Shown piece after piece: positions 4,211-31,300 of a stretch of 64,000 nt of DNA (its first letter is position 1; every line of letters begins with the position of its first letter). The DNA lies in NCBI GenBank assembly GCA_000004985.1, contig GG738891.1; one strand, written 5' to 3'. Source of the DNA: Naegleria gruberi (Eukaryota). Under the pieces are notes generated by a model. It did not search any database. It saw nothing but the letters and a program-made list of their open reading frames with translations, and had not been told where the DNA came from. The translations under genes and the position numbers were made by a program.

Positions 4211-4501
4211 AACTAAATTCAAATCCCTTCTTTCATTCAAACCATCTTTACAACTGTGCAATCCTAATGCCAAGTGAATTTGTCTTTCCGCACTGATCGG
4301 ATCATGATCAACAGCAATCGAATAGGCAGTTTCCAATAATTTATCAGAAACCTTCATCACACCAGTTTGATAAAAGTATTCTTTCATAATTCCCTCGAAT
4401 GTAATGGAAGAATTGGAGGGTAATCTCTTTCCACAATTCAAAACCTCTTTAAAAGATTCGGAATTAAAAGCTCCGGAAGAAAATAAAGCTGCTTTCATCA
4501 T
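4211..4501 (-). CDS. vWA domain protein, exon 1 (97 aa N-terminal region).
   Basis: Real ATG at 4501-4499. A GTACGT donor is at 4210-4205. Splicing out the 48-nt intron (4210-4163) joins ...RRDLNLV to IVLDISGSM in phase 0 and reconstitutes a canonical vWA beta1 strand. Confidence 0.6.
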
Positions 4502-4671
4502 TTATTTTTTTGATTTCTGCAAGTTCAGTAAAATTGGATTTTACAATGGAAATTATCGGAAAACAATATATTATTCGAAACATTTCAGTTCTTAAGGCAA
4601 GTTTGATTTTTACAAGAATTTTGAAATAAGAAACAAGAAGAATTGAGGAAACTTTTTGTTACTGTAAATTA

Positions 4672-4690
4672 CCCGCTCATTTTTATTGAC
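4672..4690. repeat. Left terminal inverted repeat of the transposon.
   Basis: CCCGCTCATTTTTATTGAC matches the reverse complement of 7197-7215 with one indel. Confidence 0.6.
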
Positions 4691-4870
4691 GCTTGTTTTG
4701 ACGATTTTATAGTCATGAATGACGCCTTTGTTTATGCTTGTTAAGGTGTCATTGGGACGTTGTTGTGGACGTCAAAATGACGTTTTTTTTCGTCATTTTG
4801 ACGGTGTCAATTTGAGAGTCATTAAGACGTCAAAAAAAGCGTCCTCAATGACGTCTCAAAAAGTGTCTCC
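4686..4870. repeat. Subterminal GACG/TGACGTC repeat array, left end.
   Basis: At least 12 copies of (T)GACG or CGTCA within about 185 bp. Confidence 0.6.
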
Positions 4871-5309
4871 AATGACGTTGCAGAATGATTATTAATTTTT
4901 GATAAATTGAAATTTTATTGAACTATTCATAATTCTTACAAGTTGGAAATCCTTCATCTTGAACCATTTCACACTGAGTGAAACTCAATGCTGTGAAAGA
5001 TTCACACCGTGTGAATTAATATTGTAAAAGATTTCACACCATCAAAGATGACAAGGAAATTGACAAGAGTTTCTTATAAAAACGTGAAATAAAAATTTGA
5101 ATTGATATGTCTTGTAAATGAATTGAAATGATGTAATATAATTGATAACTGATACGACTTACTAGTATGTTGAGGTATTTTTTTTGAAAAATAGTTTAAA
5201 CTGGTTGCAAAAATAGAAAGTGTTTATTTTAGAGATGAAGCCAAATATGGAAAGACATTTAATATAATGTAAAGGCCATTTTGTGAATTGGTTTGAAGTG
5301 AAAAGAGCC

Positions 5310-6244
5310 NNNNNNNNNNNNNNNNNNNNNNNNNNNNNNNNNNNNNNNNNNNNNNNNNNNNNNNNNNNNNNNNNNNNNNNNNNNNNNNNNNNNNNNNNNN
5401 NNNNNNNNNNNNNNNNNNNNNNNNNNNNNNNNNNNNNNNNNNNNNNNNNNNNNNNNNNNNNNNNNNNNNNNNNNNNNNNNNNNNNNNNNNNNNNNNNNNN
5501 NNNNNNNNNNNNNNNNNNNNNNNNNNNNNNNNNNNNNNNNNNNNNNNNNNNNNNNNNNNNNNNNNNNNNNNNNNNNNNNNNNNNNNNNNNNNNNNNNNNN
5601 NNNNNNNNNNNNNNNNNNNNNNNNNNNNNNNNNNNNNNNNNNNNNNNNNNNNNNNNNNNNNNNNNNNNNNNNNNNNNNNNNNNNNNNNNNNNNNNNNNNN
5701 NNNNNNNNNNNNNNNNNNNNNNNNNNNNNNNNNNNNNNNNNNNNNNNNNNNNNNNNNNNNNNNNNNNNNNNNNNNNNNNNNNNNNNNNNNNNNNNNNNNN
5801 NNNNNNNNNNNNNNNNNNNNNNNNNNNNNNNNNNNNNNNNNNNNNNNNNNNNNNNNNNNNNNNNNNNNNNNNNNNNNNNNNNNNNNNNNNNNNNNNNNNN
5901 NNNNNNNNNNNNNNNNNNNNNNNNNNNNNNNNNNNNNNNNNNNNNNNNNNNNNNNNNNNNNNNNNNNNNNNNNNNNNNNNNNNNNNNNNNNNNNNNNNNN
6001 NNNNNNNNNNNNNNNNNNNNNNNNNNNNNNNNNNNNNNNNNNNNNNNNNNNNNNNNNNNNNNNNNNNNNNNNNNNNNNNNNNNNNNNNNNNNNNNNNNNN
6101 NNNNNNNNNNNNNNNNNNNNNNNNNNNNNNNNNNNNNNNNNNNNNNNNNNNNNNNNNNNNNNNNNNNNNNNNNNNNNNNNNNNNNNNNNNNNNNNNNNNN
6201 NNNNNNNNNNNNNNNNNNNNNNNNNNNNNNNNNNNNNNNNNNNN
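5310..6244. other. Assembly gap (935 N) inside the transposon.
   Basis: Run of n characters. The true element length is unknown. Confidence 0.99.
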
Positions 6245-6256
6245 CCAACCAATAAG

Positions 6257-6922
6257 ATGTCAACTAGAAAAAACAAATCTAAGGCAGCTGCTCCAAAGAG
6301 GAAGAATCAATCTGATGAAGATGAATCAAGTACTGATACAGATAATGATTCTGAACCAAGCAAGAAAAAACAATTTAAACCATCTTCCAGTAAACAACTA
6401 GTGAAGACAGTGAAGAAGACCATGTCAGTTCATGATTCAGATAGTGATGAATCCACCACTGAAGATTCAGAAAATGGTACTGGTGACTCCACAGAATCTG
6501 TCTATTTTCAAGTTCGTCACGTTAATGGAAAACGGGAATATGTGATTGTTCCAGAGCATGTCGATTACATCTTTGATTTGATAGATAAGGACAAAGCTTT
6601 TCCAGAGTTCATCAATGCCATTATCCAATGTGAAAAGGTATTAACTGACCTCACAAAAAGGTTTGCTCATCTATTTTCAGGGCTTGCATTCAACACTACC
6701 GTAAATGGTATAACTTATTCAATTCCTCCAGACATTATCAAAATGCTTATTGGTAATGTGACTCAAAAACAGTGCTTGGAATTGTTAGCACATCATCACT
6801 TCAAGAAACCTATAGGAGAACTCACAACTGATCAAAGAACAGTATGTAGAAAGTTCTTTGAAGCAAGGGGATGGGATAAAGAAAGTGTTCGGAAGGCAAT
6901 CAATAGTTTGATCAAAGAATAA
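6257..6922 (+). CDS. Transposon-internal ORF of 221 aa: a basic N-terminus (KNKSKAAAPKRKNQ) and an acidic tract, then a globular C-terminal part. Possibly an accessory or DNA-binding protein of the element, or the C-terminal part of a larger ORF lost in the gap.
   Basis: The ORF starts immediately after the N-run and lies between the TIRs. No DDE/DDD motif is visible in the sequenced part. Confidence 0.35.
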   Translation: MSTRKNKSKAAAPKRKNQSDEDESSTDTDNDSEPSKKKQFKPSSSKQLVKTVKKTMSVHDSDSDESTTEDSENGTGDSTESVYFQVRHVNGKREYVIVPEHVDYIFDLIDKDKAFPEFINAIIQCEKVLTDLTKRFAHLFSGLAFNTTVNGITYSIPPDIIKMLIGNVTQKQCLELLAHHHFKKPIGELTTDQRTVCRKFFEARGWDKESVRKAINSLIKE

Positions 6923-7140
6923 TTTCCAGACATGATGTTAAGCTTGATAGTCAAGCTTGTGAAATTTGTATTTTTTTTTTTAAAATTTTCAAAAAAATTC
7001 ACAAGTCTGAAATACGTCACCTCCTCCTTCACTGATTTTCATCATCAAAACAACACAAAACAAACAACAACAAATAAACAACACATTACAACATCAAGTA
7101 GAACACAACAGAATATCGATAATTAACTTTGGAGTAACTT

Positions 7141-7200
7141 TATGCAAAATCGTCAGCGATGACGTCAAAAAAAGCGTCAATCCACCATCAGGAATGACGA
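7141..7200. repeat. Subterminal GACG repeat array, right end.
   Basis: cgtcagcgatgacgtcaaaaaaagcgtcaa...aatgacga. Confidence 0.55.
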
Positions 7201-7215
7201 AATAAAATGAGCGGG
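7197..7215. repeat. Right terminal inverted repeat of the transposon.
   Basis: CGAAATAAAATGAGCGGG is the reverse complement of the left end. Confidence 0.6.
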
Positions 7216-7232
7216 TTAATTGGTGAAAAATT

Positions 7233-7249
7233 AAAGAGCAGAAAAAAAT
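7233..7249. repeat. 17-bp direct repeat AAAGAGCAGAAAAAAAT, copy 1.
   Basis: Identical to 7514-7530. Confidence 0.7.
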
Positions 7250-7513
7250 TTAAACGTTTATTAATCGTATGAACCCGACGGGTTCGTCTTGATGATATTA
7301 CGAATATTAAATAATAAATTCTTTCTTGTTGGGATTGCTTTGTTCATTTCTTGTAACTCTGTGGACACAAATACTTGGCTTGAACACCCTATGCTGGAAC
7401 CCCGGGTAGTATAGGGTACGGTGACTTAACCCGACGTAAGTATTGCGGCAACACACTGTGGTCTCAGGGTCAACAGTGTAGTTACTGGGTGGTACGACAT
7501 TTTTTTTGAGACG
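7250..7513 (+). other. 264-bp GC-rich insertion bracketed by the 17-bp direct repeats. Candidate small structured RNA gene or SINE-like retroposon.
   Basis: Local GC is well above the flanks. Contains the palindrome GAACCCGACGGGTTC and ends in T8 (cattttttttgagacg). Confidence 0.35.
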
Positions 7514-7530
7514 AAAGAGCAGAAAAAAAT
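7514..7530. repeat. 17-bp direct repeat, copy 2. It ends in the ATG of the downstream peptidase gene.
   Basis: Identical 17-mer; the final AT plus the following G form the start codon at 7529-7531. Confidence 0.7.
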
Positions 7531-8851
7531 GGGTAAATTCGAAACTCTGAAAACTGAAAGCATTCACTCACTGCAAAGCAAGGGACTATTTAGATTCGTC
7601 ATCATCGTGATGATGAGTTTAATTATGTTTTGTTCGAATATTGTTATCGGAAAACAATATATTATTCGAAACGTGCCATACTTTTCACAACAAACAGAAT
7701 ATTCGTGTGGAGCTACCAGTTTACAGATGGCACTTTCGTATTTTGATGGAAATTTTCATAGACAAATGAAAGAAGAGTCATTGTTAAAGGAAACAGTTTC
7801 GTTTCGAATAATTTCTCAAGAATCAATTGTAGATGTTGCTAGAACTTCCAATCATACAGGAACATGTTCATTAGACGTCATTAGAAGTGCCAGATTCTCC
7901 ACCATTAGTTCAACACCAATTTCTCAATATTATTTACAATATCCGAAACAAGCTCCGATGAACGGATGGTTTGGAATTGAGAATTCCCATAATTTATTGA
8001 ACAAATCTTTGGATTCAATTTACTATTTTGGAGGATTAATGACCATATACTATCCAGAAAGAGGTTCTTATTTGAAATCTGAAAAATGTTCTGAAAAGAA
8101 GGGAGGAGAAGGAAATGTCAAATGTTGGGTAAAAGAAATGATTGAATCCTTTTTGAAATTTGACATTCCTGTCATTTGTTTAATGTTTTATGATTTGAAT
8201 GATAGTGAAGGACATTACCGATTGGCAGTTGGTTACGAAACTAAACTAGACGAAAGTGGAAATGAAATTCCAACACATATTATTATGTGGGATCCTTACA
8301 ATCGAGAAGGAAATCCTCCAATTTCTAATTTTACAATTTCAGAATTTTGTAATTTGTGGAATTATACAGAATTGAGATTTGAGAATACTTGTTATAGACC
8401 TTATTTTGGAGCTGTCATGTATCCATTGGATATTAAGGCAATGGTTAGTAGAGAGGGACATTTGATGGTTGAGTATGGACATCCGAAACACTTGGTTTCG
8501 TCTGATTTTGTTTCGAAACATGTGGAAAAGACACTAGTGATAGACAATGTGGTGGCCAAGATTCGTATTTATCAAACGATTCCTAATCAAGAAGATATTT
8601 TGAAAGAAGTGGAAAGTGTTGATTTGCAAATGAATCCTTCCAGATTGAATTTTGGACAAAATCTTTCATTTTCTTGGAAATTACCATCAAATCTCTTATT
8701 GGAAAAGAATATTCGAATCAAAATTGGAATTTATGGATTAGTTTGTGATAAAACCTTAACTTGGCTCTATGAACCAAACACGGACAAGTTTAGTCAATCG
8801 TACAAATATTGCGATCAAGTTGGAGGAACAATTTTCATTAAAACAGATTAA
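7529..8851 (+). CDS. Membrane-anchored peptidase-C39-like (papain-fold) domain protein.
   Basis: N-terminal hydrophobic anchor (LFRFVIIVMMSLIMFCSNIVIG). The motif VPYFSQQTEYSCGATSLQMALSYFDG matches the C39-like Q...CG..SL.M.L.Y.G catalytic-Cys region, and EGHYRLAVGYE matches the His motif. Single 440-aa ORF. Confidence 0.6.
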   Translation: MGKFETLKTESIHSLQSKGLFRFVIIVMMSLIMFCSNIVIGKQYIIRNVPYFSQQTEYSCGATSLQMALSYFDGNFHRQMKEESLLKETVSFRIISQESIVDVARTSNHTGTCSLDVIRSARFSTISSTPISQYYLQYPKQAPMNGWFGIENSHNLLNKSLDSIYYFGGLMTIYYPERGSYLKSEKCSEKKGGEGNVKCWVKEMIESFLKFDIPVICLMFYDLNDSEGHYRLAVGYETKLDESGNEIPTHIIMWDPYNREGNPPISNFTISEFCNLWNYTELRFENTCYRPYFGAVMYPLDIKAMVSREGHLMVEYGHPKHLVSSDFVSKHVEKTLVIDNVVAKIRIYQTIPNQEDILKEVESVDLQMNPSRLNFGQNLSFSWKLPSNLLLEKNIRIKIGIYGLVCDKTLTWLYEPNTDKFSQSYKYCDQVGGTIFIKTD

Positions 8852-9168
8852 TCTTATTGGAAATATAATCTAAATTATTCTAAATTATTATGAAATTATT
8901 CTAAAATGATTAGAAACTATTTATATTGAAGCCATTTTTCGTAGATTGTTCTTTACAGTAGTGGCTTAATTATTATAGAAATTTGATCAATGAGATTACA
9001 AAAAAATTTGATGAATATTTATAGTAATTAAAACACATTATATTCGCTGTCATGATTTTCATTTTTTGTAAACTTGACAAAGAACCATTACATTCGTCTA
9101 ATCTCATATAATTGTGATTTTGCCTTTCGAATAGTTTAACAGTCAAAAAAATAATAACAAAATAAAAC

Positions 9169-13325: not shown

Positions 13326-16300
13326 TTATTCAAATACCAATCTCAAATCAATTTGCACTGCAGATGGAATTTCTTCTTCCTTCTTCTTCTTTCTGAATAA
13401 TTTTCTAACAGATTCCGATGAAAAATTGGACAAGACCGATATGAAGGAATGTCTAGAATTTGTTGTTGAGTTTCCATCATCATCATCACCTCCTCCTCTG
13501 CCTACGCCTTTGCCTCCTCTCACAACAGTCACTGCTCCTTCTGAATTATGATCATCACCATCATCATTATCATGACTAATTGTGATGTTGTTGCTATGAT
13601 TTGAATGTGTATCCTCCTCTCCCCTTGTTGAAGGAGTTTCTCTTGGAGTTGGTGGAAGATAAATTGTTTCTCCCTCCACAATAGGATGATCTTCATTATA
13701 TATTATTGTTGTTGTACTCGTATTATTAATAGTATTATTTAAATTAATGATAGGAACAACAGGATGAGGATGAGGATTAAAAGGCTCGATATGAAGATGA
13801 GGTTTTTCATCATCACCATTATCACTTTCTACATCGACATCAATTGCTGTTGTCATTGAAAGTGCTCTTCTTCTTCTATTCCGATGATGACGAAGAATGC
13901 TCGATTTACCACAACAATAACAACACCACCAACAGCAACAACAAAACTGCAGGCAAGGAATGGCTAGACAACATAATTCTCCATAGAAACAATAGTAGGC
14001 ATAGCAACCAATTGTTACAGAGCAACACAAAACCATAGCACCAACCACCACAGCAATGATAATGCCTATTAACATACTCTGATCATCTATATAAATCTTC
14101 TTTTGGACAATGAAGAGATTGAGTGTGGAGGAGACAAGATTGGTCATGTTGAAAGTGACAGAACATTTGCAGGTTGCCATTGTTGAATTGATAATTGTAA
14201 CTATGCAATTTGGATTATCTTCGATGGATAGTGTACTGATTGAGATTGAGGCACATGAATATGATGTATTGACCTCTTTGAAGAACAATTGACCCAAATT
14301 ACTGTCATCTTGAGTAGTAGTAGTATTCTCTAGCAGTGGAATATGGAATTCCAAGTCAATTATGGAAGATGATTTCAATAAGGCAACATCCAAATCACCA
14401 AAACCAAAAGCAATAATTTTAGATTGGAGAGAGGACTTTCTTCTAACTTTCTCAGAGAGAGTTTCTACTTTTGAGGCTAAATAATCACCAATGGAGAATA
14501 TATCATCCACCACAAGGAATGCTTGAAGGAATGGTTTGCTGGAATGTGTGGCCTTAATAGTATTATTTAACTGTACTTTGACACTTGTCAATGTTGAAGG
14601 TTCTATCAACAGCTGATGATTCGAATAGTCGTATAACCACACCAGTTCCATCACTCTTCTATAGAATGCTGCCTTCTTAAAGACTTTTGTTCTTGTCTTT
14701 GGTTGACTTCTGGCTTCTAGATGGGAGGTAAACTTGAGAGTTGTAAATAATTGTTGTGCATTTGAAGCTTGTTTGGTAAAGAATCGTTTCTCAAGGATGA
14801 ATTGGAAGGCAGAATCAATGACAGAGTCCAAACAAAAGTCAACACCCACTGGAAGTTTCAAGCTTTCATCAGCAATCACCTTAACAAGATATTTGACAAG
14901 TTGGGATAGAGCTTCTGATACTGTATTTGTATCAAGATGTTTGAAGTTATACAGAATCGAGTCTACAGTAAATGCAGCTATGGAAATGAGTTGATTATCC
15001 ATCATTATTTCTGTACCATTTGCTAACATTCTCAATAGTTGTAGATTCTTGTTTTGATATTCTGCAAAATCCTTGATGGTATTTTCACAAGCAACCCCAA
15101 CAAAACCTTCCCTACACATACAGGTATCCTTTTTCAAAATTCCACCATTCTTACATGTGAGACTTCTTGTCAATGACCTAGTATTTTCATATATTGAAAT
15201 TGGTTCAATTTTTGTGATGGCTCTATTCAGAAGGGCAGTAGAAGTTCTAGATATGGCTGCTGATTGATAGAGTGATCCCAATAGCGACTCTTCTTTTGCC
15301 TGTTTAATCCATTGTTGAGCTAAAACTTGTACTTGTGAAAAGGTTGAATATGAGCGAGTTTGAATGCTTACATTCATTGATTCTATAGTTGATGCTTGTG
15401 TGGCTGTATTGATTACCTCAAAGAAACATGTAACTGTCTCACCAATGAATGCTGTAGGAAGTTGTTTCGAATAGCCAACATCAATATTATGCATGTAAAT
15501 TTTTACACCAGACCTATCATCAATGAAACCATATCTGTAATCTAAATGATCTTCTTCACTTTTACAATTCATGCAAATGAATTCAAATTCTGTTTCTACT
15601 GCAAAACCATTCAAAGGAGTAATGGTACAATAACACATTGGAGGAGGGGAGGCAACACTGAAACTGTACTGAATCAATGAAGCAACATTTGCATTTGGAT
15701 CATAAGCTGACAGAGTAATAATATTATTGGAGCCAGCATTTAACAAACTTGGATCAATATTAATGTAATCTGAACTTGTGGAACCAACAATAACATTATT
15801 AACAATTACCGTATAATTGGTAATTAAAGATGTTCCAGGAATGAGAGAGGTCTGTAATGTTAGAGTATCACTAACAAGAAAGTATTCCTTCTTTGGGTAA
15901 ACATTAATAATGTTAATTATTGGTGGAATATACGTAAAATGGATAGTAGTCGATTTATGAATACTTCTTCCATCAGATTTAGTAACTTTAAGATCTAGTT
16001 CTAGTGATAGTGGAGGAACGGGGAAAAGAGCTGCATCAATTTTGAAGTTCGTTGACTTTTCTGAGGATAGTACTGAGAGAAACTCTAATAAGAGCTCATT
16101 GACGTTATTGTCCAAGCATGTCCATTCCCACACTTCTGTAGAGTATGCGTTGTAAACCATTTCAGGATCTGTATAATCTACATTAATTATGGTATAATTG
16201 GGTTGTGCATCAAAAGTAATTAAGTTCAAGTATAGATCTGGAGGTTTGGTGATTAAGGTTACAACTGAAACATCTTTGATGTTAGGATTGGATGGATAGT

Positions 16301-19300
16301 AGACAGATACTTGGAATTTATAGATCTGGTAACCAAATGTTTCTAAAGAGACGTAGAGGTCAGAGTATTTATCCATACTGTATCTGATTTTTGGTCCACT
16401 CAATTGAGTCCATTCAATGATTGAATTTTCTGATTTGCATGAAGATTCTGACACTATTTTCTTGATGGTAATAGGAAATTGAGTAGTTACTTTTTCAATA
16501 GTTGTTTGTGGAACATATAATGCTGGAAGAGGGCTTTCTGCTTTTGAAAATATGGAAGAATATACAGTTGAGCTATTTACAATATTTCCCACCACAAGAG
16601 AAACTAAATATTTTCCTTGTGGAAGGGTTGAATCTAGCTTAATTAATGGAGTATTGGGGAAATTGAATGGAATAATTTGGAACACATGGTCTGTCTCATT
16701 GAACAAGGTCCAGTAATAGTCAAGTGGTGTATTATTTGGAGATATACTGAGCGAGCCATCAATGATAATCTCATCACAGGAGCTATAGAATTCTGAGAGT
16801 AGATTTATGGATGCTGTTGGAGCGATAACTTTTTCATTTTCACACCAAATGCCATAATATCCATTCTCACATTGGCATTGATTGTAATCTATGCATACAC
16901 CTCTTCCAGAACAAACATTAGAATCATTCGAAAGTAGAGAATCACATCGTGTCAACTCACAATTCACACCAACATGATTACTGGTGCATGTACAATTATC
17001 AAAGCTTGAACAATTACCACGATTTGAACACACCAAAGGATTGGTATTATTCAGACCGAAACAAGAGTATTGTTCACAACTTTCACCGAAATAGCCGTCA
17101 GAGCATTGGCAAGTATCCAAATCAATGCAATTACCCTTTCCAGAGCAAACAGTTTCTTTTTCACTTGATGAAATGTTGAAACATGTGGTCAACTCACAAT
17201 TAGCTCCATGATACTTTTCTCCACATGTACAATTATTGTAGGATGAGCAAAATCCTCTACCAGAACAAACCTTTGAATCGGCATGCTCTGTTCCATTACA
17301 ATCAAAATAATTACATAGATCTCCATAAGTTCCTAATTGACAAGAGCACTTATTCACATCAATACATTGGCCATTTCCAGAACACACTGTCGAGTTGTCT
17401 TTTTCAATACCAAAGCATGAAAATTCTTTACATTCCACACCAGTATATCCTGAACGACATTTACAATCATCAAAATCAACACATTCACCTCTTCCTGAAC
17501 AAACATTTTGAGTTTCATTGCTCAAAACACCAAAACAACTTGTCACTGAACAATCTAATCCGAAATAATGTGATACACATTCGCACTCATCTGTTTCAGT
17601 ACAACTTCCGTGCCCAGAGCAAACTCTGGAATCAGTTCTATTCATTCCATAACAAGAATAATATTGGCAGTTGTCTCCGTAATATCCTTCAGAACAATTG
17701 CATTGATTGAATCGATAGCAATTTCCTTTTCCAGAGCAAACTTGAGGATTTGATGAAGATACATTGAAACACACATAAGATTCACATTCTTCTCCATGAT
17801 ATCCATGCTCACATGAGCAATTATTAGGAGAAACGCATTGACCATGACCTGAACAAGCCAATGGTTCTGAATGTTGCACATTAAAACATGAGAAATTGTC
17901 ACATTCCTTTCCATAGTAACCAGATACACATGTGCAATTATCAAAATCAACACATTCACCTCTTCCAGAACAAACACTTGAAGAATTGGAAAGTTTGGAG
18001 AAGCAAGTAGTGATGGAACAGTTCAAATCCATATAGTTCTCATCACATTGGCATTGATCCAAGCTGGAACAAGTTCCTCTTCCAGAACAAACATTGGAAT
18101 CTGAAGAATTGAATCCAAAACATGTGTAAAGTTCACAAAATTCACCAAAATATCCATATTCACATTGGCAATTATTAAATGTTTCACATGAACCATGCTT
18201 GGAACAAACTGAGCTATTGGAAGATGAAATTCCATCACAAGTAGTTTCTTGACAGAATGAACCAAAGTAATGTTCTACACATTCGCATGTGTCATGTTGC
18301 TTGCATTCACCACGTCCATTACAAACTCTTGAATCATTACTTAATAATCCCTCACAGGATGTCACTTGACATTTATCACCCCACCAATTGTTTGAGCAGT
18401 GACATGTATCGGGTCCAACACATATTCCATTTCCAGAACATGATATGTTTAAAGTTTTCGATTCATTAAAACATGAAAATTCGTCACAATTTGATCCAAA
18501 ATAATCAATTTCACATTGACATAAATTAAAATCAATGCATTGACCATGTGAGGAACAAACTAGATTGGTTTGATTCGATGGGATGGAAGCACAGGTGGTG
18601 AGTTGACATTCTTCTCCGAAATAGTTTGGTAGACAAAAGCATTCGTCAAGTTTCGAACAATTTCCTCTTCCAGAACAAACACTTTTGGTTTCAGTATGAT
18701 TAATTCCAAAGCAAGCATAATTTTCACAATCCATGCCTGAATAACCATTCTCACATTCGCAAATTTCAGATTTTAAGCATTTTCCGTGTTTGGAACAAAC
18801 TGAACTATTTAAATGCTCAATTCCATTACAATAAAATTCTTCACAATTTGATCCAAAATAACCAGTATTACAAGTGCAATTGTTAAAATCATTACAGTTA
18901 CCATTTTTGGTACAAACAGTCGAGTCATTTGACATTATTCCAAAACAAGAGGTTACGTCACATGCCAATCCAAAGTAATTTTCTTGACATTCACAATTTC
19001 CAAAATCTGAACAATTTCCTCTTCCTGAACAAACTAACACATCATTTTGAGTAATATTGTTACATGTGTAATATTGACATTCATCACCAAAATATCCAAA
19101 TTTACAAGAACAAGTATTGTAATCAATACATTTTCCTTTTCCAGAACAAGCTCGTGAACTGGAAGATATTTCAGCACCACAACTTGTCAATTGACAATAA
19201 TCTCCAAAATAGTGAGCTTGACATTTACAATTATTGTAAGAAGTACAATTTCCTTTTTGGGAACAAACAACAGAAGAATTGGTATTGTTAATGCCATTAC

Positions 19301-22300
19301 AAGTATAATATTGGCATTCTTCTCCGAAATATCCATCATTACAACGACATGAATTGTAATCAATACATTGGCCGTTAGAGGAACAAGCAGTTTCGTTTTG
19401 GTTGGAATATTCGAAACATTCGAATATCTCACAATTGAAGCCCCTGTAATTAAGCGAGCAGTTACATTGATTGTAATCAATGCAATTACCCTTTGATGAG
19501 CAGACTGTTGAATTTAGAGATGATACTGAGCTACATGTGGTCAACTCACAATTTTTTCCAAAATAATTTTCTTCACAAGTACAATTATCGAAACTTGAGC
19601 ATTTTCCTCGAGAAGAGCAAACTTTAAAATCGACATTTGATATTCCATGACATGAAAAATATTGACATTCGTCTCCAGAATATTCATCATTTTCACAAGC
19701 GCAATTATTAAAGGAAGTACATTTGCCGAAACCAGAACAAACTGAAGAGTTATAAGATTCAATTCCATTACAAGTGGTAATTTCACAACTCAATCCAAAA
19801 TAATTCATTTCACATTGACAGGTGTCAAAATCAACACAAGCTCCATAACCAGTACAAACCAAACTGTCATTACTCAATATTCCATTACAACTTGTCACTT
19901 GACACATTGATCCAAACATATTTTCCTTACATTCACAAGTATTTACATCAAGACATTTGCCACGACCAGAACATGACAAGTTGGAGAATTTGGAAATTTC
20001 AAAACAATTGAAATTTTCACATGAATCTCCATAATAATCAGCTGTGCAATTACAAGTATTGTAATCTATACATGTTCCCTTTGATGAGCAAACAGAACTT
20101 TCATTGGATTGAATATTATTACAAGTGGTCAATTCGCAATTATTTCCAAAATAGGAATCAATACAGGTGCAATTATCAAAACTCGAACATTTTCCTTTTG
20201 AAGAACAAACAGATTCCAAAGTATTGTTCACATTGAAACAAGTATAAAATTGACAATCATTTCCAAAGTATCCTTCGTCACATTCGCAATTCTCAAAACT
20301 TTTACAATGACCTCTTGATGAGCAAACTGAGGAATTGTAATGTTCAATGCCATTACAGTTAAATAATTCACAATTGGTTCCATAATATCCTTCATTGCAT
20401 TCGCAGAAATCAAAATCTGTGCAATTTCCTTTTCCAGAACAAACATTAGTTTCGTTTGAAAGTGTTGAATTACAACTGGTCAATTGACATTCATCTCCTA
20501 AATAATTAAGGAAACATGAACAATTATTTGTTGAATAGCATTCTCCACGTGAATGACAAACAGATGAGTTGATATTCAAAATGTCAAAACATTTGAATTC
20601 AGAACAATCAGAACCAAATGAATTTTCAAAACATTGACAGGTGTCAAATTGTGAACAAACTCCATTTCCAGAACATGTCAAATCTGTTACATTGGATGGA
20701 ACTCCAAAACATACAGTAACTTGGCAGAATTGACCAAAATAATTTTCAGTGCAATTACAACTATCTGTTTCAATACAATTACCACGTCCTGAACAAACAA
20801 TTGATTCATTACTCAATGTTCCATTACATTTGTATAATGAACAGTCAGCTCCGTAAGCATCTGGTTGACATTGACAGGAATTCACATCAGAACATTTGCC
20901 TCTGCCAGAACAAACTAATTGTGATTGATTTGAAGGAATGGAAAAACAATCAGTCACTTGACAATAATCTCCATAATATCCATCTCTGCATGAACATTGA
21001 TTTGGTGATAGACATTCTCCTCTTCCAGAACAAGTAATTGTTTCATTACTAAAAATGGAATTACATATTGTAACTGAACAATTCAGTCCAAAGTAATTAA
21101 AATCACATTCACACAAATCTGTTTCTGAACAAATACCATGTCCAGAACAAACCAAAGATTCACTATTATTCAAACCAAAGCAAGTGTGGAATTGACAATT
21201 CTCTCCATAATATCCCTCAGAACAATTACAATGATTGTAAGAAGAACAATCACCTTTTCCAGAACAAACACTGTTATTGGTCATATCAAGTCCAAAACAA
21301 GATGTTCTCTCACAAAATTCACCATAGTATCCATCCGTACAATTACAAATATCTTTTGCAACACAATTTCCATTGGAATTACAAACACTTGTCAAATTAC
21401 CAAAAGTTCCATTACATTTGGATATGGAACAATCCTCACCAAATGCATCTGGAAGACAAATACATGAATCTATATCTGAACAATTGCCTCTTCCTGAACA
21501 AACTGTAGAGTCCAAGTTGAGTGTGCCAAGACATGAGAATTGAGAACAAGTTATTCCTGAATAACCTGGTTTACAAGTACAATTATTGAAAGAAGAACAT
21601 AAACCGTGAGAGGAGCATACTTGAGTGAAATTGGAAACAATATTTTCACAAGTCGTGAGCTGGCAGAATGGACCAAAATAATTTGCCGTGCAATTACAGA
21701 TATCTGGATTAATACACGAGCCACTTCCGCTACAAACAAGGGAATCATTACTTGGAATACCATTGCACAATGTAAATTCACAATTTGTTCCATAAATTTG
21801 AGAATTATTGCAATGACAATTGTTAACATCTGAACAAACGCCCCTTGAGGAACAAACTGATGAGGAATTTCTGTTAAATCCAAAGCAATCATATTCTTGA
21901 CAGTCAGATCCATAGTATCCTTCCTCACATTCACAATTATTGTATTGAGTACAATTACCGCGACCTGAACAAACAATTGTGGAATTTGAAACGATATTTG
22001 AACACGTTGTGAACTGACACCATTCACCAAAGTAATGTTTGGAACAGTTGCAAACTTTGAAATCGGTACAAATACCATTCTTTGAACAGACTAATGAATC
22101 ATTTGCAGTAATATTGTTACAATATGGAATTTCACAATTCAATCCAGTATAACCATATTTGGAATCACAATTACAATTATTATATGAATCACAACTTCCA
22201 TGTCTACTACAAACACGTTGATCATTAGATCCAAAACCATAACATGTTGTAAAATCACAAAAAGTTCCAGCATAATTCAAGTCACATTCACAAACGTCCA

Positions 22301-25300
22301 TGTCAACACATTTTCCAAAATTATTACAAACAAGAGATGAGTTTGAAGAGATCGAATCACAAGTAGTAAATTCACAATTCGATCCAAAATATCCTTCTCT
22401 ACATTCACATCTATTGTACTCTGAACAGATTCCTCGGCCACTACATACAGACCTATTATTCGAATCCACTCGGTCACAAGTTGTAAGTTCACACCAATCA
22501 CCGAAATAATTCTGAGAGCAGTTACAATAATTTGGACCATAGCAAGTACCCCTGGAATTACAAACTCTTGAATCATTGCTCATCGTTCCATTACAATATG
22601 TCAATTCGCATTCTAATCCAAAACTAAACTCATTACACTCACACTTATTGTAATCAACACATTTGCCATTTTTTGAACAAGTTTCATTGGAATTAAAAAC
22701 TCCAAAACATGAAAATTCGCTGCAATTAAACCCAAAGTATCCATAACTGCATTCACAGGTATCGTATGCAGTACATTTACCCTTTCCATTACAAACTTGA
22801 GAATGTTGTGAATCAACTCCATAACAACTGGTCAACTCACAAAAGGAGCCCCAATAGTACGGTTCTATACAAGAGCACACATCAGGATTAGAACAGTTGC
22901 CTCTACCAACATCAGTACACTTTCCAATTAGTCCATTACATATTGGAATATCACAATCTGAGCCACCATAACCTAAAGTCTCATTACATGTGCAATTATT
23001 GAAATTTTCACACAATCCTCTCAAATTACAAACCAATGGTGAAGTGTTTTCAATGAGATTACATGTTGTAAATTGACACCACTCTCCATAATGACCCTCT
23101 TCACATGAACAAACATCGGTTTTTGTGCATTTTCCATGACCATTACAAACAAGAGTTTCATTTCCCAAAGTGCCATTACAATACAATACTGAACAATCAA
23201 CTCCAAAAGTGTCTGGTCTACAAGAGCAGGTATTGAAATCTGTACAATTTCCATTTCCAGAACAAACAGTTGGAGAGTTTGGAAGCAAATCAAAACATGT
23301 GAATAAATTGCAGTCCTCTCTGACATATGGTTGTAAAGGGTCAAAGGTTGATGGTTGACTGAATTTTGCTTGTTTCAAAATTAAATAACCACCTTCTGTA
23401 CAGGTTGACCAAATAGCTCCTTGAATATTATCTGAAACTATGAAATCGTGTCCATATCTTGCAATTACAGTTCCATGAACATTTCCAGAAAAGGTATTTC
23501 CATGAATTGCTGGATTGTAAACCCAATTTGCATTTCCAGAGCTGAAATAATAAGTCAACCAAAAAACATTTCTATAGGTAGCACATTTCAGATAGGTAAA
23601 ATCGGCGCCAAAATAGTGTACGAAAGGAAGCTTAAAGACCACTGGTTCAATTCCTACAATTGTAAACTTTTGGCCATTGATTGTCCATCCATTTTCCATG
23701 CAATAGACACCTCCTCTGTTGATGATAATGTTTCTACCCATGTCAGTGTCTGGATTTTTTATCATGTAATCACAAGGAAGGGCCAGAAGCTCCTGCATCT
23801 TATTAGAAACTTGTTGAACTAATTCTAAACCGTAATTTTCTGAACTGTTTGTAACTATAGCACTTCCATTGGCAACATAGGGATAAACTGGATCTGGATA
23901 AACATAATTTGGAGGATTAATGACGAATGAAGGTATTGCAATACTAGCAGAAAGTGGCGCGTTATCCAAACTATTCTTAACTAAAACTATTGGAATGTTG
24001 GAGATTAATTTATAACCAGCAAATATATCATTTTCGCACAAGGTTCCAGAAAAGCCAGCACTACAAGTACATTGATCAAATGCATAGCAACGTCCTCTTC
24101 CAGAACAAACTGAACTATTCGTATTTTCAATGCCGAAACATGAAGTAAATTGGCAGAAAGTTCCATAATAATTTTGAGAACAGGAGCAATTATTTGGAGC
24201 AAAACAAGCACCTCTTCCAGGTGCAGTACAAATTCCTACCAAATTATTACAAATAGGAATATCACAATTAGGTCCGCCAAATCCCATTTCTGTCCTACAT
24301 GTACAATTATCGAAATAGTCACAAATTCCACTACTGTTACAAACAAGAGGTGAATATTTGGAAACTCCTGCACATGTTGTAAACTCACAAAAAGTTCCAT
24401 TGTGTCCAAAGTCACATTGACATGTATCCTTGGCCACACATCGTCCGTGTCCACTACAAACATTTGAAACATTACTAAGAATTCCATTACAAAAGGAAAG
24501 TGAGCATTGAGGACCATAACTATCTGAATTACATATACAGGTGTCAAAATCTACACATTTACCCCTTCCAGAACATGTCATATTTGAAGTTGACACAATG
24601 CCATAACAATTCACACGAGAACAGAAAGTTCCATCATAATACGAATCTTGTGGATTAAATGTTATAGGTGCTGACAGTTTTACATCTTTAAAATTGAGAT
24701 TTCCTTTAGAATTTGGTGAATGAATCATCAAAGATCCTTGTATGTCACCTGTAACTGTCAAATCAGCATTGCTATTTGCGATCATTGTTCCTTGAACAGT
24801 TCCAGAAATAGTTAAATTAGAGTTTGCATCAGTGGATAGGAAGAGTAAATTTCTATAAGTTGCGCACTCAAGATATGAAACCTTGGATCCAATATAATTA
24901 AAATACGGAGCTTTAAAGACAACTTGTTCAGTACCTATTATGGTTAAAGACATTTTGTTAATTGTCCATCCTTGCTTCAAGCAATAAACCATTCCACCTC
25001 TAATAGTGATGCTAGTAGTCAATTCCAAGTCTGGATTAGTAACATTAACTGTACATGGTAATGCTATTAATTCAGTTACTTTTTTTGTTAATTCTTGAGA
25101 AAGAATTTGTCCGCTAGATGTTGTAGTATTCTTAATGACTGCATCTCCATTCGAAACATATTGGAATTGATACTTTTCTGTAACCATTAGTGGAATTGCA
25201 ATACTGGCCAATAGATATGAATTGGATCTTGAGTTTTTTACCAAATTTAGTTTCTTATTGGTGATGAGTTTGTATCCAGCAAAAAGATCATTTTGACAGT

Positions 25301-28300
25301 TAGTGCCAGAGAAACCTGCTCTACAAGAGCATGTATTGTAATCTGTACAATAACCATGTCCACTACAAACCATCGAATCATTGGAAATAAGCCCAAAACA
25401 AGTAGTCAACTCACAATTCACACCCAAATATCGTGAAGATGAGCATGTACAAGTATTAGCATTCGAACAAGTTCCTCTTCTCGAACAAACATTAGGATTT
25501 GAAGCATTCAAACCGAAACACATGGAAACATTGCACCAAGTTCCAGTAAATTTCGAATAATCAGCGCAAGTGCAATTATTGAAAGGCCAACAAGTTCCAT
25601 GCCCACCACAAACTAATGAAGAATTTGAAGATGAAATGGAAGCACAAGTTGTTTGATTGCAATTTGGTCCAAAATAATTGGATTTACAGGAACAAGTGTC
25701 AGTTGCCAAACAACTTCCCAATCCATTGCAAGTTTGTGTGGAATTACTCCAAATGCCAAAGCATTTCTGAATGGAACAATTCGTTCCATAATATCCATCG
25801 TAACATTTACATGTGTCAATAGCAGAACAAACACCTTTTCCACTACAAACATTTGTTGAATTTTTGAGAATTCCAAAACATTTGTAAATTTCACAATTAC
25901 TTCCAGAATATCCTGTCTTACAAGTACAATTGTTGTAATCAATGCATTTACCAAATCCTGAACAAGTTAGTGAATTATTTGATTCAATTCCACCACAAGT
26001 TGTCAAATCACAGAATTGACCATGATAACGTTGTGAACAGTTACAAACATCTGGATAGATACATGAACCATGAGTATTACAAACTGATGAAAGAGAAGCC
26101 TTTGTTCTATTGCAAATAGGAATTTCACAATCTAATCCAGTATAACCAAACTCTGAACTGCAATTACAATTATTGTAAACTTGACAAGAACCTCTTTCTC
26201 TACAAGCCAAGGAAGAATTTGATGAAACACCATTACATGTGGTTAGCTCACAGAATTTTCCGTAATAATGAGCATTACACTCACAAATGTCTTTGGCAGA
26301 ACAAATTCCTCTACCAGAACAAACAGTTGATATGTTACTGAAAATTCCATCACATTTAGATATGGAACAATCACTTCCATAGGCATCCTCTGAGCATACA
26401 CAAGTGTTATAATCTATGCATTGTCCTCTTCCATGACATGTACTATTTAAATTTGAAGAAACATTATAGCAAGAAGTGTAATTACAAAAATCTCCGATAT
26501 ACTTTTCATGAGTATCAAAAGTTAATGGTACAGCAAGAGAAACTTCATGTAAAATTGAGGTAGAGCTTCCTGTTACCCATAATTGACCATCAAACGGTCC
26601 TATTACCGTCATTGATCCAGAATAATTGGGAATGTACGTTCCAAGAATTGGTGGTAAATAATTTGTCAACTTGTTTCCTCCTTCAATCACAGTGGAACCA
26701 CCAATTATCCAGAAAAAGTTTCTATGGGATGCACATTCCAGTAGCAATATGTTTGCATTAGTAATTGTAAGAGACTGAACTTTGAAAATCACTAGTTCAG
26801 TACCAATAATTACAATTCTTTGGGACGAGTTGATTGTCCAAGTGAAATCAAAACAAAATACCCCAGATTTTCTAACAACAAGTTCTTTAGGTATTTGTGA
26901 TGAGCTGGTAAATCGTTGAGTGCAGGCCATTGCTATCAAGCTAGTTCTTTTTCTCTTCATTTTTTGAATAATCACATTTGACAGCGAGATAGAACTTTTA
27001 GTCATGGTTGCCTTTCCCTTGGATTTTAAAGTAATTCCGGTACTACTCATAGAACCATAAATAATACTTGATCCAAAGTACCTAGTTAAGCTGTTTACAA
27101 CTGGCTGATAATAGTTGTTCGAATATTCAATTTCGAATACACCTGGAGTATCAGAAATGAGACCATACCCAGCAAACATATCATACATGAATCTTTCACA
27201 ATAGATTCCATCATATTCGTCCTGACAAGAGCATGTTTCGTACAAATTACAAGCTCCATGTCCATTACAAACAAACGAATCATTCGAAGCAGTTTGGTTA
27301 CAAGTTGTCAGTTGACACCAATCACCATAATAATGATCATTACATAAACAGCTATTAGGGGATGTACACTTTCCGTGTGAGCTACAAACATTCGAATTAT
27401 CGCTATAAGTTCCATTACAAATTGTAATCTGACAATTCAATCCAAAATAATTTGGAATACAGGAACAAGTATTTGGGGCCATGCATGAACCTTTAGAAGA
27501 ACAAGTTGAATTCAACAAGCTAGATACTCCATTGCAATCATACTTATTACAAATTGTATCGTAATAACCTGATTTACATGTACAAGTTTCGAATGCAGTA
27601 CAAGTACCATGTGAGGAACAAACGGCCGTGTTATTCGATTCAGTTCCATTACAAGTAGTTACCTCACAATTAACACCATAGTAATGTTCTTTGCAGTGAC
27701 ATGTATTTGGTTCTGTGCAGTTACCTCTACCTGAGCAGACTTTCGAATCAGTGGCAGGTTTAGAATAACAAACAGGGATTTGACATTCAGATCCAGTATA
27801 TCCCTTTAGAGGATTACAAACACAAGTATTATAAGGCCAACAAGTACCCCTTTCATTACAAACGGTGGTGTTTGTGGAATTAATTCCAAAACATGTTGTA
27901 AATTGACATTTGAAGCTTTCGTAATTTGGTTTACAGACACAGGTGTCAGTATCTACACATGTGCCTTCTCCGCTACAAACATGTGATACATCATTACTTA
28001 AATACCCATAACACTTGGAAATTGAGCAATCATTTCCATAATATCCATCTCTACATTTACAATTATTGTAATCTAAACATTCACCTCTTCCAGAGCAAGT
28101 TGTGTTTGAATTTCTATTGATTCCATAACAATTAAATTCTTGACAATTATTTCCGTAATAGTTCGTCTTACAATCGCACTTTTCAAAGGCAGAACAAGAA
28201 CCATGAGATGAACAAACAGTTGAATTTGTTGAATTAATTTCTGAACATGTTGTCACTTGACATAGATCACCAAAGTAATGATCTGAACAATTACATACAG

Positions 28301-31300
28301 AAGGAGAGATGCAAGAACCATGTGCACTGCATACTGCACTACCAGTTGCCAAAATTCCTTTACAAATAGGAACTTGGCAATAGCTTCCTCCATATCCATA
28401 ATTGGAATTACAAGAACAGTTTTCATATTTGATGCATTGTCCTCTTCCACTGCAAACATCTGAAGAATTGCTGGAAATACCTCCACAAGTAGTCAATTCA
28501 CAGAAAGTTCCATAATAATTAGCATTACAAGAACAAGTATCTGGTCCTACACATTTTCCTCGAGTGGAGCAAACTGAAGATGTATTGCTATATGTGGAGT
28601 TACATAAGAACAAGGAGCAATCTAATCCAAAAGCACCTTCTAGACACTTGCATGTATCAATATCGACACAAACACCCTTTCCTGAACAAGTTGTATTTGA
28701 GTTGGATTTTTCATTGTAACATGTTGTAAAGTTACAAAAATCTCCAACTATTTGATCATAAGGATCAAATGTTATAGGAGCTGTAAACTTCACATTACTT
28801 AATTCTATCATCCCTAAATTCCAAATCTGACCTTCAACAAGACCACTAATTGGCAAATAGTCAACCGATGAAACAAGAGTTCCATACAGAGGACCCACAA
28901 CACGTGAAGTGAAATTCACAGACTTTCCTATGAACCAATAAACATTTCTAAATGACGAACATTCTAAATGAATCATTGAAACATTCTTATAATCAATACT
29001 TGGTGCTTTGAATACAATTGTCTCTGTACCAATTATTGTAATCTTTGTAGAAGAAACTGTTAAAGTTGAATTAAAGCAATAGACTCCTCCCTTTCTAATT
29101 ACCATAGAATTTGCAAAGAATGATAGAGAATTTGATATGTAATAGTTGCATCTCAATAGATTTAACTCTTGAACTTTTTCTTTCATTTGTCGAAGCAATT
29201 CTATACCAATTGGTTGACTTGTATTTGTAATGATAGCATTTCCATTAGAAATGTATTCGTATTGACCTTGAGAAACATTCATTGATGGTATAGCTATACT
29301 TGCCATCAAAGGGGAATTAGTTTGCAAGTTGATTTTTACATTGATTTTCGACTCACTGATTAATTTGTATCCAGCAAAGTAATCATGAATGAAAAGTTCA
29401 CAATTTGAACCATTATAACGAGTTACACATTCACAGATATCATAATCTAGACATTTTCCGTTTCCAGAACAAGCTAATGAAGAATTAGAAACCTCGCCAA
29501 AACATGTTGTCATTTCACACAAACTTCCCAAATAATTGCTATCACATGAACAGAGATCTGTAGAAGTACATGATCCGTGAGAGCTACATACAGAAGAAAC
29601 GTTGCTAAATACCCCGTTACATGTAGTTACTTCACAAGTATTTCCATAGAAATTTGTATTGCATTCACAAGTGTCTATATCAATACAATTTCCATTTTTG
29701 GAGCAAGATAAACCAGAGGCCATTCCTATTCCAAAGCAATCATATTCCTGACAAATCTTACCATAATAACCTTCCATGCATGAACAATTGTTAAAATCTG
29801 TGCATTCACCATGTCCAGAGCAAACCAAAGAATCATTTGAACTGATTCCATCGCATGTGGTCAACTCACATAAATTTCCAAAGTATGTGTCACTGCAATT
29901 ACAATAATCCAGCAATACACAATTTCCTCTATGGTTACACACCGTTTCATTGGTAGATATTATACCTTTGCAATATGTAAGTTCACATGAAAATCCCTCA
30001 AACCCTTCAAAACAAGTACAATTCTCAGCCATCGCACAAATTCCATTTCCATTACAAACAGTTGTGTCATTTGACAATACTCCACCACACAAGGTTTCAG
30101 AGCATGTCTCACCAAAATAGTTCAATTCGCAAAGGCAACTGTTTGTACTATGGCAAGAACCTCTTCCAGAGCAAACAGAACTGTCATTACTCGAAATACC
30201 ATTACAATAGGAAATTTCACACATCGCTCCCTCATATCCTTCTTCACATTGACAAGAATCAATATCTAAGCATTGACCCCTTCCAGAACAAACTTTACTA
30301 TTGTTCAAAGATAAACCGAAACAATTAAAAATTTCACATTCTTGTCCATAGTATCCTTGGGCACATTCACAATAATTGAAAGAAGAACAACTTCCTCTCA
30401 TGGAACAAACTGATGTAGAGTTGGATTCTAATCCAAAACACGTGGTTGATTGACAGAATTCTCCATAATAATTATCTGTACAATTGCAAATATTAACATC
30501 AATACATTGACCTCTTTCTGGTTGAGTGCAATAACCAACCAATCCATTGCACGTTGGAATATCACAATTGGATCCTCCATAAAGAAATGATGCATCACAA
30601 GAGCAATTATTAAATTTCTCACATGAACCTCTTTGATTACAGGCATTTGGTGATAAATTTGAAATACCATCACAAGTTCTGAATTGACACCAAGTACCAT
30701 TATTTCCATATTCACAAAGACAAGTATCTGTAGAGATACATTGACCATTTCCACTGCATGCATTCGATTCATTTCCAAGTACTCCATTACATTTGGAAAT
30801 AGAACAATCGTGTCCATAACTTTCTGAAGGACACAAGCATGCGTCCAAGCCAACACATAATCCCCTTCCTCCACAAACGCTCGCCTCACTCGATAACACT
30901 CCAAAACAATAGGTACTTAAGCATTGTGCAGTAATATAGGTATCATATGGATTGAAAGTTATTGGCGGACTAAACACGAGATCAAAAACAATCAATTGAG
31001 TTCCTCCGACATACCAGATTGCTCCTTGGACATTGTGGTAAACCTCCAAGCTGTAATAAGGAGAGGCTCCTATCACTGTACCATGAATTGTTCCTGTGAA
31101 AAAGTTGCCATTCAATCCTCTATCAAATGTCAACCAGAAAAAGTTTCTGTAAGAGGCACATTCCAAGTAATAGAAAGTGGCTCCATAGTAGTAGACAAAA
31201 GGAGTTTTGATTACAACAGGTTCTGTACCAATCACTACAAAAGTATAAGATGAATCTATGGCCAATCCATTTGGAAAACAATACACTCCTCCATGTTTGA

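Follow-up and report, generated by a model that had tools for sequence, protein, structure and literature searches.

A probable lineage-specific insertion of 264 bp, flanked by a perfect 17-bp duplication, at the start codon of a gene for a C39-like peptidase in Naegleria gruberi

Directly upstream of a C39-like peptidase gene in Naegleria gruberi NEG-M, a stretch of 264 bp lies between two identical 17-bp sequences, the second of which runs into the start codon of the gene. This raises the question of what the stretch is and how it came to be there. The locus was analysed within 64,000 nucleotides of contig GG738891.1, hereafter the window, in which the peptidase (NAEGRDRAFT_71499, XP_002673306.1) is encoded by a 440-aa open reading frame with a Peptidase_C39_2 match on the plus strand (7529-8851). 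An earlier note on this DNA had read the stretch as an insertion, either a retroposed small structured RNA (SINE-like or a pol III transcript) or a non-coding RNA gene embedded in the promoter.

The repeat itself is as perfect as had been described. Copies of AAAGAGCAGAAAAAAAT occupy positions 7233-7249 and 7514-7530 with zero mismatches between them, and the last two bases of the right copy supply the AT of the ATG at 7529-7531. The adjoining bases differ on both sides, making the repeat exactly 17 bp long, and no third copy with up to 2 mismatches is present in the 64-kb window. This is the sole non-coding exact 17-mer in the window to be directly repeated within a distance of at most 500 bp, all of the remaining ones falling inside an open reading frame of 6,474 aa composed of EGF repeats. 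Third-order Markov simulations of the window yielded a mean of 0.025 such repeats, with at least one in 3 of 200 simulations, and the pair is thus more than a chance occurrence. The EGF-repeat reading frame is a feature of the region in its own right: its 6,474 codons stay open on the minus strand from 13326 to 32750, with EGF-like CSGRGxC repeats and a Cys-rich, transmembrane-like tail.

The peptidase and six further ORFs of the window match N. gruberi proteins exactly, all of them encoded on a scaffold of 339,217 bp. Within the protein collection, the nearest relative of the peptidase has 434 aa and is 97% identical in amino acid sequence; it is encoded on an 1,804-bp ENA metagenome contig (L001) from a close relative with ∼95.7% nucleotide identity. 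L001 matches the window in three colinear pieces, namely L001 1-378 with window 4292-4671 (95.6% identity), L001 376-409 with 7216-7249 (100%) and L001 393-1804 with 7514-8960 (95.7%), and the second of these runs straight into the third. The sequence at this junction is ...ctgtaaaTTAAttggtgaaaaattAAAGAGCAGAAAAAAATGggtaaattcg..., comprising a single TTAA and a single 17-mer (L001 393-409) directly before the G of the ATG. Both the 264-bp segment (7250-7513) and a neighbouring 2.5-kb piggyBac-like element are missing from L001, which makes both of them lineage-specific, and by sequence comparison we read this contig as the empty site for two separate insertions. Since the empty site holds only one copy of the 17-mer, the other was made by the insertion, and the pair can be recognised as a target-site duplication (TSD). 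The proposal of a TSD around a real insertion is therefore borne out through an orthologous locus lacking the insert, the kind of comparison that the earlier note had suggested, while the ancient promoter repeat that it had named as the alternative is contradicted by the single copy in L001. Taken together, the segment appears to be a real lineage-specific mobile-element insertion.

The insert is compositionally foreign DNA. Its 3′ half (7381-7505) reaches 50% GC, the 99.9th percentile of 125-bp windows, and to this half the description of the insert as GC-rich applies; the 5′ half has 33%, however, and the insert as a whole only 41%, compared to 34% for the window. The insert also contains 13 CpG dinucleotides (observed/expected ratio 1.17, 99.7th percentile by count), against an observed/expected ratio of 0.44 for the window, and nearly all of the other CpG-richest 264-bp windows coincide with one or other end of the neighbouring transposon. 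The CpG richness of the insert and the transposon ends fits young mobile DNA in which host CpG decay has so far been absent. The window itself is strongly depleted in CpG, with GpC at an observed/expected ratio of 0.79, which fits methylation-driven CpG decay of resident DNA; Naegleria encodes Tet-like dioxygenases. CpG peaks were located at 4621-4935, 7041-7405 and 7250-7513, the last of these, the insert, sharing the top count of 13.

Two sequence elements that had been reported within the insert are indeed present. The palindrome GAACCCGACGGGTTC (7271-7285) lies in the AT-rich 5′ half and carries two of the window's three AACCCG[A/T]CG motifs. The element GTAAGTAT (7436-7443) forms part of TTAACCCGACGTAAGTAT (7426-7443, plus strand), which also contains the octamer TTAACCCG. 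With 4 occurrences in the window versus 1.6 expected, GTAAGTAT is only mildly over-represented and is thus weak evidence when taken alone. The insert does not end in a run of eight T residues, as had been supposed. On the plus strand, its 3′ end (7500-7513) consists of T8 at 7500-7507 and then GAGACG at 7508-7513, after which the second repeat copy begins, placing the T-run inside the insert. A repeat search of 7233-7530 found no terminal inverted repeats (TIRs) or long terminal repeats belonging to the insert. Neither end has a poly(A) or simple-repeat tail, the plus-strand end being T8GAGACG and the minus-strand end AATAAACGTTTAA; at most 1-3 A residues (at most 3 in the plus orientation) could be assigned to a tail, and these are common to the TSD. 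Close to the insert end, CATTTTTTT (7498-7506) is the exact reverse complement of AAAAAAATG (7523-7531), which consists of the end of the TSD and the G of the start codon, giving a potential 9-bp hairpin around the junction. This complementarity may have arisen by chance in A/T runs or may be a trace of integration microhomology.

The second element missing from L001 occupies positions 4672-7215 and has the TIRs CCCGCTCATTTT / AAAATGAGCGGG. It is flanked by TTA (4669-4671) on the left and TTAA (7216-7219) on the right, the left flank thus being a TTAA minus one base, where the empty site has a single TTAA. TIRs of the CCC...GGG type together with a TTAA target are the piggyBac pattern. The subterminal regions of this transposon contain 15 and 5 GACG/CGTC motifs, compared to a background of 1.75 per kb. 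No transposase was detected in its visible sequence: an assembly gap of 935 bp, seen as a run of Ns, spans 5310-6244, and the ORF at 6257-6922 has no Pfam match. A second run of Ns in the window lies at 1977-2026. The ORF corresponds to NAEGRDRAFT_58999, whose cluster at 90% identity includes an N. gruberi protein of 476 aa that UniRef names as SPK-domain-containing. A piggyBac-type transposase gene (DDE_Tnp_1_7; L002 2248-4155) is present in N. lovaniensis, ∼6 kb upstream of the orthologous peptidase. The transposon end at 7215 is separated from the first 17-mer copy by 17 bp, 13 bp of which lie beyond the TTAA. Of the earlier reading, the notion of two separate insertions holds, both being missing from L001.

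The insert is not itself a piggyBac element. It shares with its neighbour a CpG-rich composition and one copy of TTAACCCG, but its TSD is 17 bp long and is not TTAA, TIRs are absent, and it shows no similarity to the neighbour that can be aligned. TTAACCCG consists of the TTAA target and the first four TIR bases of the transposon, and it occurs in the window only at the transposon end and in the insert (7426-7433). Beyond this 8-mer no similarity was found between insert and transposon, and a relationship between the two was rejected as a candidate, the local alignment scoring no better than the shuffle null. GACG/CGTC occurs 4 times in the insert versus 0.46 expected, a nine-fold excess which, by a rough estimate, is not significant given the 13 CpGs; both this enrichment and the octamer match were found post hoc.

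Coding potential was sought on both strands of the insert. On the minus strand, an open frame of 68 codons runs across the GC-rich part, and an AT-rich stretch containing AATAAA lies behind it. An equally long frame was present in 23% of shuffles, and its length is thus not significant. The codon score of the frame is −3.6, whereas real genes of the window score +33 ± 19 and off-frame sequence scores −48 ± 31. Its 68-aa product had no relative in a 5.8-billion-cluster collection that includes the N. gruberi proteome, nor in a full phmmer search against 1.84 billion representatives, and a single query joined from the open segments of the remaining five frames likewise had no match in the 5.8-billion-cluster collection. 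Two candidates were rejected on these results: that the frame is the C-terminus of a gene or a LINE ORF2 (length not significant, codon usage atypical, no homologue), and that the insert is a processed pseudogene derived from the mRNA of a protein-coding gene (no parent coding homology in six frames). The search for further copies of the insert was negative in the 64-kb window, in ∼120 kb of other loci (N. lovaniensis, Willaertia and, for the most part, unrelated or distant genomes), in plasmids (blastn) and, for exact 21- to 24-mers, in JGI metagenomes, viral contigs and prokaryotic genomes. Members of the Logan cluster were unrelated fungal and bacterial contigs.

How, then, might a short non-coding segment have been inserted with such a long duplication? 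The most likely origin, to which we give about an even chance, is target-primed reverse transcription of a non-coding RNA of ∼264 nt. The source RNA may have been SINE-like, the 3′ end of a 5′-truncated LINE (non-LTR retrotransposon) or some other transposon-derived transcript. In this scheme, an endonuclease encoded by an element would nick one strand of the A/T-rich DNA immediately upstream of the start codon, reverse transcription of the RNA would begin at that nick, and the second strand would be cut 17 bp away, fill-in of the stagger then producing the 17-bp duplication. Copying by reverse transcription, the orientation of the insert and the kind of RNA from which it came are all matters that we infer.

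Several features of the insert can be set against those of known element classes. Non-LTR retroposons have TSDs of variable and frequently long extent (7-25 bp), and the 17-bp duplication, checked against an empty site, is of this kind; the lack of TIRs and LTRs agrees with this class as well. A 3′ poly(A) or simple-repeat tail, on the other hand, was not found, and this absence is the main weakness of the retroposition model. It lowers the retroposon claim without excluding it, since some LINE clades are without tails. A SINE in the strict sense has an internal pol III promoter that stems from tRNA, 5S or 7SL RNA; none was seen, and neither were the TIRs and short superfamily-specific TSD of a cut-and-paste transposon or MITE. 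To our knowledge, no eukaryotic DNA-transposon superfamily makes TSDs of 17 bp, the range being 3-11 bp, and we know of LINE-type integration but of no cut-and-paste superfamily in eukaryotes that leaves a TSD this long without TIRs.

The cues to orientation conflict. APE-type LINE endonucleases prefer TTTT/AA, where the slash marks the nick. If the insert is in the plus orientation, the nick on the primed strand would read CTCTTT/AATTTTT, which is TTTT/AA-like, while in the minus orientation it would read AAAAAAAT/GGG, which is unlike this preference. The minus orientation has in its favour the order of the 68-codon open frame (itself not significant) and the AT-rich stretch with AATAAA behind it, and in this orientation the T-rich, pyrimidine-rich TSD would resemble the preference of EhLINE-type elements. 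On balance, the plus orientation is slightly favoured.

LINEs have been reported from Naegleria, N. lovaniensis having 190 copies (PMC6125883), and the literature search returned no description of Naegleria SINEs or of insertion-site features of Naegleria LINEs. Among the closest known systems is EhSINE1 of Entamoeba histolytica, whose young copies lie in A/T-rich targets and are mostly flanked by TSDs of 18-24 bp (PMC2996970). Like EhSINE1, the insert is a short non-coding sequence without TIRs or LTRs in an A/T-rich intergenic target, has a long perfect TSD, and is polymorphic between close relatives. It differs in its length, ∼264 bp as opposed to 450-680 bp, and in that no copy family, partner LINE or conserved 3′ tail or poly(A) was found for it in the sequences searched. 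Similarly, L1-type retrocopies and pol III retropseudogenes share with the insert a TSD within 7-20 bp and, in the plus orientation, a TTT/AA-like nick, but the insert has no poly(A), no annotated mRNA source and no match to a known small RNA.

Target-primed reverse transcription has to be weighed against other origins, one of which is the small RNA gene of the earlier note. A retroposed or mobile small RNA gene, of pol III type or similar to an snRNA or SL RNA and perhaps transcribed from within the promoter of the peptidase gene, could account for the GC-rich 125-nt block that finishes in T8, with the T-run serving as a terminator or Sm-like site. The element GTAAGTAT would then be a splice donor or a U1-complement element, given that on the minus strand it reads AUACUUAC and is followed by AUUUGUG; small hairpins also exist in the insert. 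Nevertheless, neither a small structured RNA nor a pol III transcript nor a promoter-embedded non-coding RNA gene emerged from the searches. The Rfam covariance-model scan that the earlier note had suggested was carried out (three scans in all) and gave no match for the insert at the gathering score across the window or at E ≤ 10 in local scans, the families without a match including U1, SL RNAs, 5S, 7SL/SRP, tRNA and snoRNAs as well as rRNA. The best sub-threshold scores, snoR14 (E = 7.5) and mir-2072 (E = 5.7), fall far below the cut-offs. ARAGORN found no tRNA-like element in the insert, only two tRNA genes being present in the window, at 35 and 37 kb, and no internal A/B-box promoter was seen, inspection by eye yielding just partial B-box-like strings. 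Dinucleotide shuffles gave the same folding energies as the whole insert and its GC-rich half, on either strand (z from −0.56 to +0.56). Moreover, the insert continues for 6 nt (GAGACG) past T8 and so does not match a pol III stop at its end, GTAAGTAT is just mildly over-represented, and the close relative is without the sequence, which is therefore no essential RNA gene conserved at this site. On this evidence a small RNA gene is a decidedly unlikely origin. More specific versions of it were dropped for lack of Rfam support at E ≤ 10 and of any structure signal, namely a minus-strand U1 snRNA (AUACUUAC ... AUUUGUG) and a plus-strand SL-RNA-like gene (GUAAGUAU donor and U-run); the idea of a dictyostelid DUSE-type promoter was dropped as the host is Naegleria.

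Alternatively, an unrelated fragment of DNA or cDNA may have been captured during repair of a staggered double-strand break, which we regard as unlikely. Such filler-DNA capture, including that of cDNA and organellar DNA, is known from yeast, and the insert is like these cases in being a single-copy-looking, unrelated sequence without transposon termini. The absence of a tail, of TIRs and of any detectable family would be expected, and the break itself might be connected with activity of the neighbouring transposon, at a distance of 17 bp. The fragment could even span a piggyBac-type transposon end and the flank of another locus, to which the confinement of TTAACCCG to the transposon end and the insert would conform, as would the excess of GACG/CGTC, a motif typical of transposon subterminal arrays. 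Two insertions at most 20 bp apart, in a genome that surveys have described as TE-poor, also hint at a linked event. End-joining, however, does not normally yield a clean 17-bp duplication, and filler-DNA events rarely do so. The similarity to the neighbouring transposon is not above the shuffle null, the motif excess fails to reach significance given the CpG content, and the octamer match was noticed post hoc. The co-location is in part forced, because both insertions lie in the only intergenic stretch of ∼200 bp available between two genes. A mitochondrial source would further disagree with the composition of the insert (41-50% GC), the mitochondrial DNA of Naegleria being very AT-rich. Nor is the insert rRNA, for which Rfam gave no match. 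A non-autonomous DNA transposon of an undescribed type, without TIRs and with long target duplications, would explain the perfect TSD, the missing tail and a composition like that of the neighbouring transposon's ends; yet we can recall no eukaryotic cut-and-paste superfamily that has 17-bp TSDs, or that lacks TIRs while making TSDs, and consider this very unlikely. There is an equally small chance that the insert represents an undescribed short mobile element of Heterolobosea with 17-bp TSDs and without TIRs, poly(A) or a pol III-type promoter, perhaps derived from or co-mobilised with piggyBac-like ends. The link to piggyBac is based on the TTAACCCG core, the GACG motifs and the common CpG-rich composition and, if true, would connect a DNA transposon family to a retroposition-like or break-repair route of integration. 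Lastly, the direction of the change is read from one comparison sequence, and deletion by recombination across the two repeat copies would produce a site indistinguishable from an empty one. The 17-mer pair could accordingly be an old promoter or chance repeat from which the relative has lost the intervening DNA. We hold this to be extremely unlikely, as a perfect 17-bp repeat is unlikely to have been there beforehand (0.025 per 64 kb) and the DNA between the copies is compositionally foreign; even then, an earlier insertion with this repeat as its TSD would be the best explanation.

The peptidase ORF is intact. The 15 bases in front of the ATG survive in the right TSD copy, and the old upstream region is now 281 bp further from this ATG. 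Any transcript starting upstream of the insert would include the upstream ATGs at 7269, 7292 and 7391. Two young insertions have rebuilt the entire 5′ region of this gene, which makes the locus a natural test case for the insertion tolerance of compact Naegleria promoters. Naegleria genomes have been reported as TE-poor, with 0.28% TE in one recent survey and 5.1% total repeats in another, and almost nothing has been described of their non-LTR or SINE-type elements. The filled and empty pair with its perfect 17-bp TSD suggests that machinery for long-TSD integration was recently active in the N. gruberi lineage, and the 264-bp insert provides a seed sequence for finding its family. In other respects this is an ordinary finding of transposon biology in a TE-poor protist genome.

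Some further observations concern the peptidase gene itself. Its N-terminal region differs from that of the relative by in-frame indels of 15 nt and 3 nt (7541-7560 and ∼7610; L001 418-470), giving 440 aa in place of 434 aa, and both indels are near the point of insertion. Positions 4553-4581 and 7644-7672 of the window, and likewise 268-296 and 505-533 of L001, hold a perfect 29-nt direct repeat, the peptidase codons for IGKQYIIRN recurring ∼150 nt upstream of the gene in the spacing of the empty site. The upstream copy falls inside a mini-ORF that begins at the ATG at 4547 (MEIIGKQYIIRNISVLKASLIFTRILK, then a stop). As the relative has both copies, this repeat is an older partial duplication, and its copies have possibly been kept identical by gene conversion. 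In Willaertia magna (JBEGDK010000067.1) there are two near-identical peptidase loci (62-84 kb and 121-142 kb), which are 58 kb apart and both keep the same neighbouring genes.
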